A stretch of 64,000 nt of DNA from a virus (IMGVR_UViG_3300042923_000619:96001-160000), one strand, 5' to 3'; counted from the first letter of the stretch, positions 3,160 to 44,691 are shown. The notes: a model not told the origin generated them from the sequence alone. Made by a program: numbers and translations.

Positions 3160-4323
3160 TTATCTCTTAAATAAATTCTTTTTCATAGTTTTTTTAACAA
3201 CTTTATTTCCTTTTGTGCTTATATTTTCATCATTTACTTCAATCTTATGTTCTACTTGTGTCTCAGATATAGGTGTTTGTTTGTTTATTTTAAATTTACT
3301 AAAATCTAATTCATTTTGTATCGAAGAATGTTTTTTTCTATCTTCAAGTTCATGTTCAATCAATTTTATTGAATTAATTGGAGGAAAACATCCACTTACA
3401 AGCAATATATTTCTATCTGAATTTATACCAGTATAAGTTTCTTTTGATGGTATATAAAGTTTGTCTATATAATCCTTATTATAATTCTCATTTACAAATG
3501 ATATTCCTAAATATCCACATTTTACAGACTTTGTTCCATCTTCAAGAACTTCTGTATTATTCTCATCTCTATATATTTTAGCCAATATACTATTTTTTTC
3601 TGCTTTTATCATAGCAACCTCAATACTACTACAATCATTTGGAATATCATAAAAATATAAGCAACCTTTATCTTTAAGTACATTGCTTAGATTTCCATTA
3701 TCAAATTTAATACCATTTATTGCAGGAATTTCAAATATTGAATCAAATGTTTCTGAAAATTTTTCATTTATTTTTAACTCTTTATCATTTTCATCAATAA
3801 CTTCACTAATTTGAGCGTCATTGTTAATAAACATCATACTGTTTATACAAGGATTTTCAAGAATTTCGTCCCAGGTATTTATTGCATTTTTTAATATTAC
3901 TTCTGGTGATTTTAAACTTGGAAGAATACCAACAACATTTATTGTCTTATCAAAGTCTCCATCTAATTTCATTGCACTTATAGCTCTTAAAAGAACACTT
4001 AATATGGCACTGCCACTACCACCACCCATGCTTGAAACGAAGTATATGGTATCTTGTTGATATCTATAAAGTAAATCTATGATATTATATCCTCTTTGTT
4101 CTGCATATTCTTTGCCTAAATCCCTATCTCTTCCAACTCCATTTTGAGTACTTATACAATAATAATTCTTGATAGTGTCATTAAAATTATTTAAACTTTG
4201 CAAATCAGTTATACTTGTATTAACAAATAGTCCTTGGAATCTAGCATCAACATCAAGAATGGAATCGACTAAACGTCCTCCTGCTCCACCTAACCCTACA
4301 AAAAGTATATCATCTCTATTCAT
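3160..4323 (-). CDS. tubZ: TubZ tubulin/FtsZ-like partition GTPase
   Basis: FVGLGGAGGRLVD, NTS..D, GVGRD and tubulin signature SMGGGSGS; basic C-terminal tail. Probable start at 4323 (RBS AAGGGGAGGA) rather than 4344. Confidence 0.92.
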   Translation of the reverse strand: MNRDDILFVGLGGAGGRLVDSILDVDARFQGLFVNTSITDLQSLNNFNDTIKNYYCISTQNGVGRDRDLGKEYAEQRGYNIIDLLYRYQQDTIYFVSSMGGGSGSAILSVLLRAISAMKLDGDFDKTINVVGILPSLKSPEVILKNAINTWDEILENPCINSMMFINNDAQISEVIDENDKELKINEKFSETFDSIFEIPAINGIKFDNGNLSNVLKDKGCLYFYDIPNDCSSIEVAMIKAEKNSILAKIYRDENNTEVLEDGTKSVKCGYLGISFVNENYNKDYIDKLYIPSKETYTGINSDRNILLVSGCFPPINSIKLIEHELEDRKKHSSIQNELDFSKFKINKQTPISETQVEHKIEVNDENISTKGNKVVKKTMKKNLFKR

Positions 4324-4666
4324 TATTAATATCCTCCCCTTCATTTAATTCAACATATTCATATATATCTTCTTTATCTAAAATATTTTCTTGTAAATAT
4401 TTAATTCCATCACTTGATATATAATAAGTTTTTGCTCTAGATTCTTTTATTCCTTCATACACATATCCTAATTGCATCAACTTATTTTGTATCCTTCTTA
4501 CGTATGTGTAATAAGACGATTTAAGTTCAGTATTATCTATTATGTCTTGAATTTTAAATGATTCAATTGGACTTATCTTTTTGTTTACAAATAAAGCATA
4601 TAGTAATTCTATGTCATATTTATCTAAAACCATCATTGCACCTCCTATACTATATAATAGTATCAT
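4316..4666 (-). CDS. tubR: TubR-like winged-helix centromere-binding protein
   Basis: About 106-116 aa wHTH (LMQLGYVYEGIKESRAKTYYIS) overlapping the tubZ start. Confidence 0.7.
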   Translation of the reverse strand: MILLYSIGGAMMVLDKYDIELLYALFVNKKISPIESFKIQDIIDNTELKSSYYTYVRRIQNKLMQLGYVYEGIKESRAKTYYISSDGIKYLQENILDKEDIYEYVELNEGEDINNE

Positions 4667-38848: not shown

Positions 38849-39148
38849 TTAAATATAATAATTTAAATGTGTCTCATCTTCTTTTTCATCACATTTATTA
38901 TTCAAAGAACAATTTTCACAATTAAATTTCATAATTTTATTAGGACAAACCCCTAGTGCTAAGGCTATGGCTGAAATAAGAGATAGTTTTGGAGATTTTT
39001 TACGTGTAATAGTCGGTTGTTCTAACATAGCTATATAAGCTTGGCTTACACCAACTCTATATGCTAATTCTTCTTGACTCATATGACATTCATGTCGATA
39101 ATATTTTATGGATAATTCATATAACATTTTATACACTCCTTTCGACAA
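38849..39148 (-). CDS. Divergent XRE-family regulator with a C-terminal Cys cluster
   Basis: MSQEELAYRVGVSQAYIAMLEQ...LSLISAIALALGV; CENC...C tail. Probable start at 39127 (RBS AAAGGAGTG). Confidence 0.85.
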   Translation of the reverse strand: MSKGVYKMLYELSIKYYRHECHMSQEELAYRVGVSQAYIAMLEQPTITRKKSPKLSLISAIALALGVCPNKIMKFNCENCSLNNKCDEKEDETHLNYYI

Positions 39149-39191
39149 GTAGAAATGTTTTTATCATTATAACATGGAATATTATGTCGAA
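39141..39191. promoter_or_regulatory. Two Spo0A boxes around the XRE promoter
   Basis: TTCGACA (39141-47) and TGTCGAA (39185-91) flank an extended -10 TGTTATAAT (39174 to 39166) that lacks a good -35. Confidence 0.55.
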
Positions 39192-39427
39192 ACAAGATGA
39201 AAATTAATCCAATAATAAAATATTAGTAAAATATTATTACCACCAGTAATAGTATTAAAAATATGATGTGATATAATAGATTTATAGGAGTTGTTAAATT
39301 ATTAACAATTTAATTTTAATAAACAAATGAATATAATAAGCAAAACTAAAGCCGATAAAAATATCATAATAACTGATAAAATTTCTTTACAGAATATTTG
39401 TTTGGTGTTAAAATTATATCTATAATA

Positions 39428-39441
39428 AGAACACACATTCG
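39428..39441. promoter_or_regulatory. LexA (SOS) box
   Basis: AGAACACACATTCG (reverse complement CGAATGTGTGTTCT) immediately after TATAAT at 39421. Confidence 0.6.
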
Positions 39442-39577
39442 ATAAAACTATGGTAATAAAAATAAATATTCCTAAAATACATATTGATATTTATATTAAT
39501 TTGTTATAAAATAGAAATGTAGACAAGTTTAAATATATTAATTTGTTTATAAATATATAAAAATAAAAAGGGGAATC

Positions 39578-39892
39578 GTGATGGGAATGAGAGTAAAACA
39601 AAATAGAAAAACTACTGAACAATTAAAAAAAGAATATGAGACAAATATTCAAGGATATATTTTTATGGCAAAAGAAAACAATAACAATATCTTAATATCA
39701 GAAAATAATGATATTATAGTATGTAAGGCTCAAGATTTTTGGAATACAATAAGAATAAGTGTTATGGATATAGAAATTGAGAATCCTAAATTTATAAGAT
39801 GCGAATACATAAATGATAAGCTAATGTTAGAATATGATGATAGAATTATAAAATTAAAAATGTTAAATGATGGACACAATGCAATAGAATAG
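39578..39892 (+). CDS. Hypothetical protein
   Basis: 104 aa; promoter TTGATA-N17-TAAAAT (39484-39512) with TTAATTTGTT in the spacer. Confidence 0.6.
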   Translation: MMGMRVKQNRKTTEQLKKEYETNIQGYIFMAKENNNNILISENNDIIVCKAQDFWNTIRISVMDIEIENPKFIRCEYINDKLMLEYDDRIIKLKMLNDGHNAIE

Positions 39893-40032: not shown

Positions 40033-41451
40033 ATGACACAAGAAGAAGTTCTTATATATAGTCAAGAAAATTTAAATAAAGAATTAAAAAAAGTTATAAC
40101 AAAATATTTTAAAAATAAAGAATTAATAAAATCTATAAATTTTGAATTAGCAGAAAAAAATATGAATTCAAATATAACATCAGCATTATTTTTAGATGGA
40201 ACATTAGAGCCAAAAGATTTATCTAAAGAAGAAAAAATGGCAATAACAAAAGTTTGTTATGATGTTTTAAAATTAGAAAAATTAAATTATAGAAAATATT
40301 ATGAAGCAGAAGAAAGAGGAGATTACAACAGTTATAAAAATATAGAAAAACAAATAAAAGAAATAGAACTTCATAAAATTCAAAAAATAGATGAATATAA
40401 TTATATAGGTAGAATTAGCTATGAACAAATATATCTATATATGAAAAATGTATTATTTAGATATAACAAATTGGCACAAAGAGCATTTAAAACTAAATCA
40501 TATGGAACAAAGGATTCATCAATAAGAGTTATTGACTTAAAACAAAAAAATGTTAATGCTATGTTAGAATTGATATTAAAAGGAAAATTAGAAAGTACAC
40601 AAATAATAATAAATGTGAGACTTCCAGAAGGAGATGAAGATTTTGAACCAAAATATGTATTTGAATCAATAGATGAAGAAAATCTTCCCGACATTGGAAC
40701 TTTATCAATTTATCCATTATATGATATAGATAGTAAAGATTTTACAGTAGCAGAAATATTAGATGGATTCCATAGATTAGTTGCTGTTTATCAAGCAATA
40801 GCACAATATAAAGCTGAAAATAATGGTACAGTTCTGGAAGGTGGATTAGATATTAGAATTGTAATGAGAACACTTTCAGAAGCTCAAGAAATCGTCAGAC
40901 AAATTTTTGAAAGAAGTGACACAAATAAAGAATTCATAAAAGGATTTAAACAAGGTGATGATGTTGATTTCTTAAAATTAGTAGAAGATAATTCTAAAAT
41001 ACTAAAAGGTGAAATCGCAATAAACTTCGAAGAACACAAAATGTCTAAAACATTAACATATAAAACAATTTTATTAGATGCATTAAAATTAACAGAAATT
41101 CAAGTAGAGAAAAAGGGAAGTATTAGAACTATAGCAAAAGAATTAGGTTCTACAATTGATGAATTAGTTGAATCATTGAAGTTTAAGTACTTTAATGATA
41201 ATTTAGAAGATATGGAAGCAGATAGTATGCTATTAAGTTGTAATATGTTCGTAGGTTATTTAGCTATAGCAAATACTATGAGAACAATGAAAGATTATAA
41301 TAAAATTGATGAGGTAATAGATAACCTATATACCGTTCCTAAGTCACAATTAGAAAAATTGAAAATAAATCGTAGCCCAAATTCTTGTAATTATAAAGTT
41401 ATATACAAATACTTTACAAACTTAGTAATGGAGGTGTATAAAGTTGCATAA
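40033..41451 (+). CDS. DGQHR/DndB-ParB-like domain protein (SPbeta YopQ/SroE-like)
   Basis: 472 aa, EILDGFHRLVAV motif; overlaps the next gene by 8 bp. Confidence 0.6.
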   Translation: MTQEEVLIYSQENLNKELKKVITKYFKNKELIKSINFELAEKNMNSNITSALFLDGTLEPKDLSKEEKMAITKVCYDVLKLEKLNYRKYYEAEERGDYNSYKNIEKQIKEIELHKIQKIDEYNYIGRISYEQIYLYMKNVLFRYNKLAQRAFKTKSYGTKDSSIRVIDLKQKNVNAMLELILKGKLESTQIIINVRLPEGDEDFEPKYVFESIDEENLPDIGTLSIYPLYDIDSKDFTVAEILDGFHRLVAVYQAIAQYKAENNGTVLEGGLDIRIVMRTLSEAQEIVRQIFERSDTNKEFIKGFKQGDDVDFLKLVEDNSKILKGEIAINFEEHKMSKTLTYKTILLDALKLTEIQVEKKGSIRTIAKELGSTIDELVESLKFKYFNDNLEDMEADSMLLSCNMFVGYLAIANTMRTMKDYNKIDEVIDNLYTVPKSQLEKLKINRSPNSCNYKVIYKYFTNLVMEVYKVA

Positions 41452-42601
41452 TCAAGATTTGGAATTTATAGGTCAAAAATATTTAAAACCGACTCTAGAA
41501 GAAACAGAAGCAAAAAAGCAAGAAATATTGGCTAGTTATGATAAGTTTCAATTAGATAAAATTACATGGTTAAATAATGTGTATATAGAAGAAACAACTA
41601 AAAAACCTTTATGGAGTGTTTATAATAATAATATCCATGATTATGAAGTTGCAAAAAACAAGGATTTGAAAGATTTTCAACAAGAAGAAGTTGTTTCTAT
41701 GATGAAAAGTTTTATTTATGTAGCACCTATGACTTTAGGATCTATTAAAGCTTTTGTTAATAGATATTTTGATTATTGGGTTGAAAAAGGTTATATAACC
41801 ATTAATCCTATACTTGGTGAGAAATCATTAAAAGGAATAAAATCAAATAAAAAAATGTTAGAAACAAAAATATACAATATGGATGAATTTTATGATTTAC
41901 TAAGACAAATGAAAGAAGTCACAAAATCAGCTAATATAAAACCTTTATTATTAGGTAGATATGGCATACAAGGGAAACAATTGATTCATATGAGAAGTTT
42001 GAAATATAAAGATATTGATATAGAAAATAAATTTGTTAATATTTATGATGAAAATAATAAATTTCTAACATTAATTCCAATAGATAACCAGTTTATTGAT
42101 TTTCTGGCTGAATTAGATGATATTGTTGATGAAGACTCTAAGAAGAAATTATATGAATCAGATGTATATGTATTAGAAACAAGAGAAATAGTAAATTATA
42201 ATACTGTAAATAGTAGAGTTTATAATGCATTTAAATATTTGAATAAAAATGGTAAAGAAAATATAGAAGACTGGGAAAAAGTTCCTCGTATATCTTTTAA
42301 TGATTTACTATTTACAAGACAAATTGAACTTTTATTGCAAATAAGAAAGACAAGAAAGATATCTATTCTTGATATAAACAGCATAGTAGATATCTTTGGT
42401 AATATAAAAGGAACAGCATTTTCTAAGTATCATATACAAGAAAAATATGAAAGTTTAACAAAAGATAAAGTTCTATTAATTCAAGGAGGATATGCAAAGT
42501 TTGAAAATAAGATGGAGATATTAAAAGTTAATATGATTGATCCATTAGCGTATGATACAGTCAATGAAATTTGTGAGTCAATAGGATTGAATATAGATTA
42601 G
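41444..42601 (+). CDS. Catalytically degenerate tyrosine-recombinase-fold protein (SPbeta YopR/MrpR/SroF-like repressor)
   Basis: Core-binding-like N-domain; box I reads YGIQGKQLIHMRSLKYKDID (no catalytic Arg) and box II reads ISFNDLLFTRQ (HxxR lost). Confidence 0.65.
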   Translation: MHNQDLEFIGQKYLKPTLEETEAKKQEILASYDKFQLDKITWLNNVYIEETTKKPLWSVYNNNIHDYEVAKNKDLKDFQQEEVVSMMKSFIYVAPMTLGSIKAFVNRYFDYWVEKGYITINPILGEKSLKGIKSNKKMLETKIYNMDEFYDLLRQMKEVTKSANIKPLLLGRYGIQGKQLIHMRSLKYKDIDIENKFVNIYDENNKFLTLIPIDNQFIDFLAELDDIVDEDSKKKLYESDVYVLETREIVNYNTVNSRVYNAFKYLNKNGKENIEDWEKVPRISFNDLLFTRQIELLLQIRKTRKISILDINSIVDIFGNIKGTAFSKYHIQEKYESLTKDKVLLIQGGYAKFENKMEILKVNMIDPLAYDTVNEICESIGLNID

Positions 42602-42628
42602 ATTGGGAAAATCCAATCTTTTCTTTTT
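42597..42628 (+). terminator. Intrinsic terminator after the recombinase-like gene
   Basis: AGATTGG-GAAAAT-CCAATCT followed by a U tract. Confidence 0.75.
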
Positions 42629-42650
42629 TAATTTATTTTTATAAAAAGTG

Positions 42651-42793
42651 TTGACATTATATTCCGTAGGGTGTAATATATAGTCATGGGAGAGATAACA
42701 ACAAATTAAAATAAAAAAGAAAAACATTTAAAAAAGTATTGACAGTATTACCAAATGGTGGTAATATTAAAACATAGGAACAAAACAAATTAA
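42651..42793 (+). promoter_or_regulatory. Tandem sigma-A promoters of the mazF operon
   Basis: TTGACA-N17-TAATAT at 42651 and 42739, each followed by AACAAATTAA (42700, 42784); palindrome TATTACCA-N5-TGGTAATA at 42746-42766. Confidence 0.8.
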
Positions 42794-42812
42794 TGTAAAA
42801 AAGTAATTTGAA

Positions 42813-43715
42813 ATGAAATTTAATAAGAAATTAATTAAATGGATGGTGGCAGTAATGAAAGATTTTAGAGAACAGCTAATGGCTATAAAGACAGAAATGA
42901 ATGAAAAAGAATTAACTCAAAAAATAAAGGTTGAGGTCAAAGACCTAGATATAAACAAACAAATTAAGCAAATTAAAATTGAAGTGAATACCAATGATAA
43001 AAATTTACATAACAATATTGAGCATAAAAATGTTATGTATAGACCAAATTATAAAAATATTGAAGAAAAACATGAATATATTGACTTAAAATATATAAAG
43101 CGAGGTGATGTAATATGGATTAATCTTTTTGGGTCAGTTGGGTCGGAACAAGGTAGTGATGAATATGGTCGTCCATGTGTCTGTATCCAAAATGACGTTG
43201 GAAACGCTCATTCACCAACTATAATAGTCTCAGCTATAACATCTCAACTTGGAAAACAAAAATTACCAACGCATGTGTTAATTCCTTCATCAGAACAATA
43301 TGGATTAACTAAAGATTCTGTGGTTTTATTAGAACAAATAAGAACTGTTGATAAAAGAAAAAGAATATTAAGAAGAACAGGTCACTTGGATGAGCTAGTA
43401 ATGAAAAAGATAAATAAGGCTTTAGCAATATCAATTGGTGATTTACAACAAAAAAATACATTAGAAAAACTTGAATCAAAAATACAAAAATATATAATAA
43501 ATAGCTTTAAATCAATTGATACTTATGAAATGACAATTGAAACTATGCAAATAAATAATGTTCCACAAGAGGCAGTTGATTTAATAGAAAATCAAAAGTT
43601 TAGAGAAGAAAATGGGTTAAAATGTTATTGTGATGATAATAAATTAAATTATAATATATTATATAATGATTATAAAAATATGGTTAAAGAAAAAGAGGAA
43701 GATATCGCATTATAG
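42813..43715 (+). CDS. mazF: MazF/PemK endoribonuclease with N- and C-terminal extensions
   Basis: KRGDV...GSEQG...RPCVCIQNDVGN..SPT.IV.AITS...KLPTHV...DSVVLLEQIRTVDK, closely like B. subtilis NdoA/EndoA; catalytic Arg and Thr retained; about 80-aa extensions on each side. Confidence 0.92.
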   Translation: MKFNKKLIKWMVAVMKDFREQLMAIKTEMNEKELTQKIKVEVKDLDINKQIKQIKIEVNTNDKNLHNNIEHKNVMYRPNYKNIEEKHEYIDLKYIKRGDVIWINLFGSVGSEQGSDEYGRPCVCIQNDVGNAHSPTIIVSAITSQLGKQKLPTHVLIPSSEQYGLTKDSVVLLEQIRTVDKRKRILRRTGHLDELVMKKINKALAISIGDLQQKNTLEKLESKIQKYIINSFKSIDTYEMTIETMQINNVPQEAVDLIENQKFREENGLKCYCDDNKLNYNILYNDYKNMVKEKEEDIAL

Positions 43716-43727
43716 TATGAACAGGAG

Positions 43728-44351
43728 ATGGGTAATATGGGAAAAAGAGAGGAAGAAATAGAAAACAAAATAAGAAATGAAGTGTTTATAGGTTGTTTTG
43801 GTAGAGGGGAATTTAATAAAGGAAAAAAAATATTACAAAAATTATATTATCAATATTATCCTATTTTAGATACTTTTGAAACTAAAAGAATGATTCTTTA
43901 TAACTATATAGTTGGAGAAAGATTGGACACAAATATTGAAGATATAATTAAAAAATGTAGTGAAAAACTAAAGAATGATATGGATAATGAACTAAATTAT
44001 AAAGAGACAAATACAAAAGAATATTGTATGATGTTAGCATATTATTGTGATACACATAAAGAAGAATTAGGAAAAGAAGAGTTGATAAATATATACACAT
44101 TTAGTTATAATTATTATAAAAAGGCTGGATTGGAAATTGATATGTTAAATTCTAAATTCAATTTAGCTTTAATTGAAAAAAAGTTTGAAATTGTCTTTGA
44201 GATTATCAAAGACATACATAATAGTGATGACAAAATATGTCAAGCTGTTTTATCTCAAATGCTAAATGATTTAAAAAACATAAACATAAATAAATATATT
44301 GAAATACAATTATTACTTAAAAAAGAAAATAAAAAACTTTCATTAGTTTAA
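43728..44351 (+). CDS. All-helical TPR-like protein, candidate peptide receptor
   Basis: About 205 aa, amphipathic helices with Tyr/Asn patterning (YNYYKK...LNSKFNLAL), no HTH; 12 bp after the mazF stop and directly upstream of a peptide ORF. Confidence 0.5.
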   Translation: MGNMGKREEEIENKIRNEVFIGCFGRGEFNKGKKILQKLYYQYYPILDTFETKRMILYNYIVGERLDTNIEDIIKKCSEKLKNDMDNELNYKETNTKEYCMMLAYYCDTHKEELGKEELINIYTFSYNYYKKAGLEIDMLNSKFNLALIEKKFEIVFEIIKDIHNSDDKICQAVLSQMLNDLKNININKYIEIQLLLKKENKKLSLV

Positions 44352-44411
44352 AATATGGTTAAAAGACACCTTATAAAAGAACTTAATAACTAATGAAAGA
44401 GGTGAAAACAT

Positions 44412-44504
44412 ATGAAAAAAATTTTAAGTTACGCATTAGCTTTAGCGGTATTCGTTGCTCCAACAGTAATCAGAATACTAAGCTCAGGTGGTGGTTGGGG
44501 ATGA
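44412..44504 (+). CDS. Unannotated 30-aa secreted signalling propeptide (MKKILSYALALAVFVAPTVIRILSSGGGWG)
   Basis: RBS GAAAGAGGTG, MKK n-region, hydrophobic h-region, Gly/Trp-rich C-terminus; followed by a terminator. Confidence 0.75.
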   Translation: MKKILSYALALAVFVAPTVIRILSSGGGWG

Positions 44505-44540
44505 TATTTAATATTATTCTTCCACAATAACAATCTACAT

Positions 44541-44576
44541 AAAAAGGCAATTAGGAGCAATCTTGATTGCTTTTTT
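44541..44576 (+). terminator. Terminator closing the mazF-receptor-peptide operon
   Basis: GCAATTAGGA-GCAA-TCTTGATTGC followed by T6. Confidence 0.85.
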
Positions 44577-44691
44577 ATAATTTATAGATTATTTATAATA
44601 AATTAAGAAAAATATAAATATTATTATTGACAATGGTAATTAATAGTATTAAAATGATAATATAAACAAATTAATAGAAATATAGAAAGGA

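Follow-up and report, generated by a model that had tools for sequence, protein, structure and literature searches.

In Bacillus phages, peptides have been shown to control the choice between lysis and lysogeny, and this control reaches host MazF by way of AimR, AimX, SroB and MazE. The arbitrium system of phi3T and SPbeta (AimR-AimP-AimX) acts through host MazEF, together with the sro operon (bioRxiv 10.1101/2023.04.27.537455; PMC10769878). In phi3T, where host MazF promotes lysogeny, phage transcripts are enriched in MazF sites and the sro operon is spared (bioRxiv 10.1101/2023.04.27.537455; bioRxiv 10.1101/2025.11.27.690993). The site is the 6-mer UACAUA, and MazF is conserved in Clostridium as well, where it is chromosomal (10.64898/2026.08.06.743204); MazF of this 6-base kind has been reported to be non-lethal (bioRxiv 10.1101/2023.04.27.537455; 10.64898/2026.08.06.743204).

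We analysed a stretch of 64,000 nucleotides (hereafter the window; IMGVR_UViG_3300042923_000619:96001-160000, with positions counted from its first letter) taken from a virus record of 196,135 bases with direct terminal repeats and 25% G+C. Next to a repressor operon, the window carries a phage mazF, a gene for a TPR-like protein and a small peptide ORF, and we read this cassette, with a probability of roughly 60%, as an arbitrium-like switch in which a peptide-gated receptor would control a phage-owned and probably non-lethal RNase by contact, the peptide releasing inhibition. Our search of the literature, with subscription papers outside its scope, found no description of this architecture, and the RRNPP surveys consulted make no mention of MazF or PemK.

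Anatomy and conservation of the cassette

Seeing that relatives of the cassette genes come from Clostridium isolates and MAGs (including C. butyricum, a MazF labelled C. botulinum, and peat, gut and rumen metagenomes), we infer a clostridial (Clostridium) host. Homologues of phi3T_96 and phi3T_97 lie just before the cassette, and by this homology the phage is SPbeta-like and temperate, with its mazF cassette adjoining the repressor operon. The sequence-only reading had described one unit running from tandem promoters through mazF, a gene for a helical protein and a peptide ORF to a GCAA terminator, and all of these parts were found, as listed here with the neighbouring repressor genes and the UACAUA sites.

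40033..41451, + strand: YopQ/SroE-like gene of the repressor operon (profile against phi3T_96, E 4e-39; phrog_5732; 0 UACAUA)
41444..42601, + strand: YopR/MrpR/SroF-like master repressor gene (PF22822 MrpR_N_CB over cut-off; profile against phi3T_97, E 1.5e-15; 0 UACAUA)
42600..42629, + strand: intrinsic terminator ending the sroE-sroF unit
42651..42767, + strand: two tandem sigma-A-type promoters, by consensus match only (TTGACA-17-TAATAT at 42651 and 42739)
42855..43715, + strand: phage mazF (ORF 42813-43715, likely start 42855), with variable N-terminal extension, EndoA-type core and conserved C-terminal bundle
43006..43011, + strand: UACAUA in the mazF N-terminal extension, at the same position in L001, L007, L008 and L117
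about 43095-43436, + strand: EndoA-type core of MazF
about 43437-43712, + strand: C-terminal three-helix bundle of MazF
43737..44351, + strand: HTH-less, TPR-like putative peptide receptor, 204 aa (alternative start 43728)
44215..44220, + strand: conserved UACAUA in the receptor gene, on Ile/Leu-His-x codons
44412..44504, + strand: predicted secreted propeptide, 30 aa, with strong RBS, basic n-region and hydrophobic core
44536..44541, + strand: UACAUA at the 5' foot of the terminator (a site at most 31 nt past the peptide stop also in L007, L008, L020, L098, L099 and L103)
44539-44578, + strand: intrinsic terminator with GCAA loop (z -6.3)

Promoter consensus matches in this AT-rich DNA stand at chance level (65 found versus 58 expected), and tandem promoters upstream of mazF are also present in c-st and L117. 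Beyond the peptide come the terminator and then a new promoter. A receptor start 12 bp past mazF, as originally read, is possible at 43728, but we favour 43737 because of its RBS spacing. Before sroE, a reverse XRE gene and a 104-aa gene (38849-39892) recur in most loci, and their position is reminiscent of two phi3T genes, yopS and that of the antirepressor Sar. Further away (3160-4344, minus strand), a 394-aa gene has a tubulin/FtsZ-like glycine-rich start and appears TubZ-like by eye, which suggests a plasmid-type prophage.

The cassette recurs in more than 15 clostridial phage lineages. Every phage locus long enough shows the full order of XRE (reverse), small gene, sroE, sroF, mazF with its C-terminal extension, receptor, peptide and terminator, and mazF lies directly 5' of the receptor in every one long enough to tell. 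The order from sroE to the terminator was seen in L001, L007, L008, L013, L014, L020, L100, L101, L103, L106, L108/109 and L110, down to about 25% receptor identity, such that the position directly after the SroE/SroF-like pair, already pointed out from the sequence alone, is fixed across loci. One further receptor, with an overlapping 20-aa peptide ORF, sits on a Clostridium cibarium contig with a relaxase and MobC (L112:161-806), where the 160 bp ahead of it hold no mazF.

When 13 loci were compared in pairs, SroE and SroF identities varied together (rho 0.88), and receptor identity followed neither of them (rho -0.15 against SroE and -0.06 against SroF) but was closer to that of the MazF C-terminal extension (0.57) than to that of the MazF core (0.36). 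L103 and the window share 82% SroE identity and just 28-29% in receptor and extension, and the L108/L109 pair is 100% identical in the receptor, 92% in the extension and 79% in the MazF core. These values suggest that the cassette is swapped as a module and that MazF bundle and receptor move together; the co-variation of the two is supporting, not decisive, because gene adjacency alone could yield it.

An ORF of 16-53 aa follows the receptor in 18 of 19 loci, 16 of these with a basic start and hydrophobic core by a heuristic signal test, and the same rule picks a signal-like small ORF after only 6 of the 259 genes in the phage. In many relatives, 4-7 residues come after a cleavage site of A-x-A type (tails such as TGNGWG, GSIGRG and GPSDRG), so that the mature peptide of the window is probably the C-terminal hexamer SGGGWG, likelier than the nonamer ILSSGGGWG first named. 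Peptide class (W-type versus RG/KG-type) clusters on the receptor tree, with 4 changes versus 8.3 when shuffled (0/200), a difference that near-copies inflate. Both a conserved propeptide beside receptor homologues and receptor-peptide co-variation, looked for on the strength of the initial reading, were thus borne out. In L106 the peptide is repeated twice, a feature also seen in some signalling propeptides. In L113:6001-6629 the next gene comes immediately after the receptor, with peptide and terminator missing, a possible signal-less variant.

Between receptor and peptide genes, relatives have a long hairpin over the peptide Shine-Dalgarno (L001:8090-8160, L014:6598-6670, L020:7465-7540, L110:6617-6685 and others), with z of -7 to -10 and two-sided changes at 14 of 19 consensus pairs; the 3' arm of this hairpin includes a UACAUA in L014, L020 and L101. 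The window and its clade are without such an anti-Shine-Dalgarno hairpin over the peptide start (window z -0.9). Where present, it is possibly a translational throttle or a MazF-sensitive element. Just past the receptor stop, L001 and L117/L118 have a strong RBS into a 2-3 codon ORF ahead of the hairpin, and the window has a 12-codon ORF between receptor and peptide (44355-44393); these short ORFs possibly serve translational coupling.

Phage MazF and the distribution of its presumed cut site

The window MazF matches the PemK domain (E 1e-29) and Bacillus EndoA-type MazF (E 9e-31 to 1e-30), and keeps the catalytic Arg and Thr together with the Lys/His/Glu RNA-binding positions, which confirms the NdoA-like enzyme with catalytic residues of the sequence-only reading. 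That reading also gave it extensions of about 80 aa at both ends: the C-terminal one is conserved and folds as a three-helix bundle in an AlphaFold model, but the N-terminal one is variable, at about 5-95 aa among relatives. With the bundle as query, the ESM Atlas gave no usable match. Outside the window, an 80-aa ORF (G000:C1:170864-171106, with homologues in G003 and G004) resembles the tail of the bundle (E 2e-4) and could be a receptor-titrating decoy or a chance helical match. A mazF frameshift within a run of eight A (L014:5311-5318) is probably a sequencing slip.

[quoted passage not shown] Long MazF without a window-type receptor occurs in c-st and L067, with sroE-sroF likewise site-free. 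In the C. botulinum phage c-st (CST027, L015:5953-6615), a diverged long MazF lies upstream of a UACAUA-free yopQ-yopR pair, with no receptor or peptide; toxin genes within one c-st control stretch were excluded from all analyses. The 186-aa gene after the L067 mazF was considered as a receptor and rejected, being not homologous to it. In our view the phage MazF more probably regulates through a 6-base site, without lethal effect, than kills as a toxin, and it may form the "toxin switch" initially proposed.

Evaluated against synonymous-codon shuffling (200 shuffles), TACATA occurs on the phage coding strands 198 times versus 117 expected (z 10, rank 1 of 4096 hexamers; shuffle maximum 135). 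The counts are even over the three frames (69/67/62) and the antisense word is neutral; the UACAU 5-mer is weakly enriched, and the signal sits in the 6-mer. Five related cassette-bearing phages reach 1.4-2.0x, phi3T as positive control 2.6x and c-st 1.3x, and the unrelated clostridial phages phi3626 and phiCD119 stand at 0.34x and 0.60x. The single negative control, a cassette-less SPbeta-like clostridial 100-kb element (L107) in which no mazF or receptor match was found, stands at 0.82x, and its host contigs are neutral (0.95-1.27x, z up to 1.2). The sroE-sroF genes have no UACAUA in 16 of 17 loci, including every cassette carrier checked, the exception being the cassette-less L107 with two sites; antisense matches in these genes number 26 over all 17 loci. 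Receptor genes, by comparison, hold exactly one UACAUA in 17/17, at the same codon in 16 and elsewhere in the 17th. Because this single site persists even through the rare CTA codon, the conserved His of the receptor is probably conserved as RNA.

Taken as site statistics, these results show that a UACAUA-specific nuclease has selected the mRNAs of this phage, in the pattern expected of a lysogeny-promoting RNase. The pattern appears tied to carrying mazF, by one negative control, and is one in which phage and host MazF are indistinguishable. Lysogeny, dormancy and defence had all been offered as roles, and the genome-wide site pattern favours lysis-lysogeny control as the main one over dormancy or defence. 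A toxin for anti-superinfection or abortive defence, to which the TPR protein would be a plain antitoxin and the peptide incidental, would be in keeping with MazF-type toxins acting in phage defence (bioRxiv 10.1101/2023.04.27.537455). Under selection, though, the cut site has become over-represented in genes of the phage itself and has been lost from the repressor operon, and the peptide is conserved and co-varies with the receptor; we find this explanation scarcely credible.

The phage MazF might instead serve mainly as a decoy that titrates host MazE, as SroB does, or heterodimerises, such that host MazF does the cutting and the receptor gates titration. Clostridium does have a chromosomal MazF (10.64898/2026.08.06.743204), phi3T does act via host MazEF (PMC10769878), and the catalytic Arg is replaced in L100, the L160 fusion (below) and P0113/P0117, with sroE-sroF of L100 still site-free. 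The window and most long MazFs keep both the catalytic Arg and the catalytic Thr, for which a decoy would have no use, and we judge such a role improbable.

The putative receptor and its possible contact with MazF

The AlphaFold model of the receptor has 11 helices and no HTH (pLDDT 88, pTM 0.80). It aligns with the PlcR TPR domain (VIA Z 12.4, rmsd 4.4, 172 aligned) and with NprR and Rap structures (Z 10.4-10.5), and kinesin light chain and LGN score as high as PlcR, Z 10-13 being the range of any helical repeat. The TPR or helical-repeat fold foreseen from the sequence therefore holds, as a generic fold, and because RRNPP structures tie with unrelated TPRs, family membership is unreadable from the fold alone; the gene context is much more specific than the fold. 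The receptor has no Pfam match and no sequence match in PDB, Pfam or NCBIfam; with Foldseek, neither PDB nor the viral libraries had a match at E up to 0.001, and the ESM Atlas names it a "TPR protein" with low recognition. A profile search of 1.8 billion representatives returned 53 homologue clusters at 50% identity, all of 229 aa or less, and a profile search for fused relatives of 402-2000 aa, a range that a 369-aa fusion (below) falls outside, found none. The GenBank phage set yielded no receptor, and neither did GTDB genomes scanned by patterns; an alignment of 49 sequences proved too divergent for scanning by pattern. Its chain carries neither an N-terminal HTH nor a three-helix output domain; the bundle is at the MazF end instead.

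One 126-kb phage (L160) encodes a natural 369-aa MazF-bundle-TPR fusion (L160:7910-9232), with the catalytic Arg changed to His, followed by a 47-aa propeptide ending in IDPPIN. The first 178 residues of the fusion match MazF core plus extension with a probability of 98%, and its TPR part matches the receptor family weakly (E 9e-4, probability 23%). No sroE homologue was found in this record and no UACAUA in the fusion-peptide unit.

In the window, mazF and receptor form one frame across a single TAG. A programmed read-through fusion was rejected as biology because the frame is not conserved (in frame in 8 of 17 loci, with several stops in three), and served as a modelling device only, in which the extension plus receptor were folded across the in-frame stop (304 residues), with proximity forced and no control. 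In this linked AlphaFold model the three-helix bundle packs on the TPR and the linker is disordered, and the pTM of 0.83, above the 0.80 of the receptor alone, implies a confident relative placement of bundle and TPR. The model aligns over bundle and TPR with Rap (residues 10-287) and NprR (66-338), and the structural ranking puts PlcR-PapR first; these matches, at Z 9-12, fall within the helical-repeat range. Given such Z-scores and an uncontrolled model, we offer as a hypothesis that a Rap/NprR-like receptor may be divided into two parts, a TPR protein and a bundle carried by the RNase.

Whether the locus is fully a split RRNPP receptor, with the output bundle on phage MazF and the TPR sensor free, forming a toxin-antitoxin pair in which an extracellular peptide would gate the antitoxin, we consider evenly poised. 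If true, this would be phage communication without a transcription-factor step, with feedback encoded in receptor codons and specificity exchanged by cassette swapping, and, as far as our search reached, the first lysis-lysogeny peptide signalling in clostridial phages.

The same evidence bears on a reading of receptor and peptide as a Rap-Phr-like module with another target (a host response regulator, SroF or an antirepressor), mazF being a co-transcribed neighbour. Such independence would suit the L112 receptor and peptide on a mobilisation contig, as well as the occurrence of long mazF without receptor. It sits poorly with mazF directly upstream in all phage loci long enough, the joint swapping of bundle and receptor, the L160 fusion protein, the linked model and a receptor without the Rap output bundle, all of which make this reading very improbable.

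A proposed switch and its comparison with known systems

Building on the observed gene anatomy, conservation, co-variation and site pattern with its cassette link, we propose that early in infection the operon would yield MazF, TPR receptor and propeptide, and that the propeptide would be exported, cut to a short peptide (probably SGGGWG) and re-imported, as RRNPP biology leads us to expect. Peptide-free receptor would dock on the MazF C-terminal bundle and keep the presumed RNase off, and lytic transcripts would survive. At high phage density the peptide would fill the TPR groove and MazF would become active, cutting UACAUA on lytic transcripts and sparing sroE-sroF mRNA, with lysogeny or blocked induction as the outcome. 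Phage density would thus probably turn MazF on and push the phage to dormancy. With the receptor as inhibitor, cutting of the single receptor-mRNA site would give positive feedback locking the decision.

As to sign, we lean modestly towards an inhibitor released by peptide over an activator switched on by it. Under the opposite sign, MazF would be silent alone (through bundle self-inhibition or host MazE) and the peptide-bound receptor would activate it, with lysogeny at high density still and the receptor-mRNA site as negative feedback capping activity. The tolerance of long MazF without a window-type receptor in c-st and L067 would fit such silence, though with 6-base MazF reported as non-lethal, tolerance without a partner needs no self-inhibition, and the phage encodes no MazE. 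Sites in mazF and at the terminator look self-limiting, as this sign would have it. Activation by peptide, as in PlcR and NprR, speaks for this sign, and AimR and Rap, phage systems that their peptides turn off, speak against it. We hold the opposite sign to be unlikely but worth keeping in view; it shares most of its evidence with the inhibitor reading, which largely includes its weight.

The preferred reading, an inhibitory receptor released by peptide, leaves exceptions to explain, in c-st and L067 without receptor, L113 without peptide, L112 without adjacent mazF and members without the catalytic Arg. The locus offers a minimal, directly testable system for a sequence-specific RNase deciding lysogeny. 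It also provides a candidate RNase that a peptide could switch, for which many orthogonal pairs of peptide and receptor exist, and an example of selection at the RNA level, with cut sites placed in or purged from coding sequence, following cassette presence.

Compared with phi3T/SPbeta arbitrium, the locus likewise belongs to an SPbeta-like phage, has a TPR receptor followed by a secreted propeptide (predicted here) and adjoins sroE-sroF; in both, UACAUA is enriched on phage transcripts and missing from repressor genes, and peptides are short and Gly-rich, several relatives ending in RG. Unlike arbitrium, MazF is phage-encoded and has an additional bundle, the host is presumably clostridial and the cassette lies downstream of sroF, the receptor is of 204 aa with no HTH and no detectable similarity to phi3T AimR (profile E 1.8), no aimX, yosL, sroA-D or MazE mimic was found, and control is apparently by protein contact rather than antitermination.

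With Rap-Phr and NprR-NprX the locus shares the TPR fold and what we take to be an HTH-less protein-contact output, and the linked model aligns over bundle and TPR (Z 9-10). Rap, however, holds bundle and nine repeats in one chain of about 370 aa, whereas here a separate polypeptide, the RNase, bears the bundle, the repeats number about 5, the receptor clusters all stay within 229 aa, and the target would be a phage RNase, not Spo0F or ComA. PlcR-PapR and the clostridial Qsr/Qss RRNPP systems resemble it in a five-TPR-type core, which among RRNPP structures gives the best match (Z 12.4), and in a downstream Sec-type propeptide, and the W-G-ending peptides may resemble C. acetobutylicum Qsp peptides; those systems are HTH transcription factors, unlike this one. 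Type II MazEF (NdoA/NdoAI) of Bacillota has the same EndoA-type core and catalytic residues and, by implication, the same 6-base site, but includes MazE, in place of which the candidate antitoxin here would be the TPR protein encoded downstream, with an extracellular peptide as its gate.

As we read it, the locus works in the manner of phi3T arbitrium acting through MazF, but it falls outside AimR-AimP-AimX (no AimR homology, HTH or AimX), Rap-Phr (size, no bundle in the receptor chain) and MazEF (no MazE). What Bacillus phages attain through host MazF, large temperate phages of Clostridium appear to reach by this locus with three genes, without any step of DNA binding.
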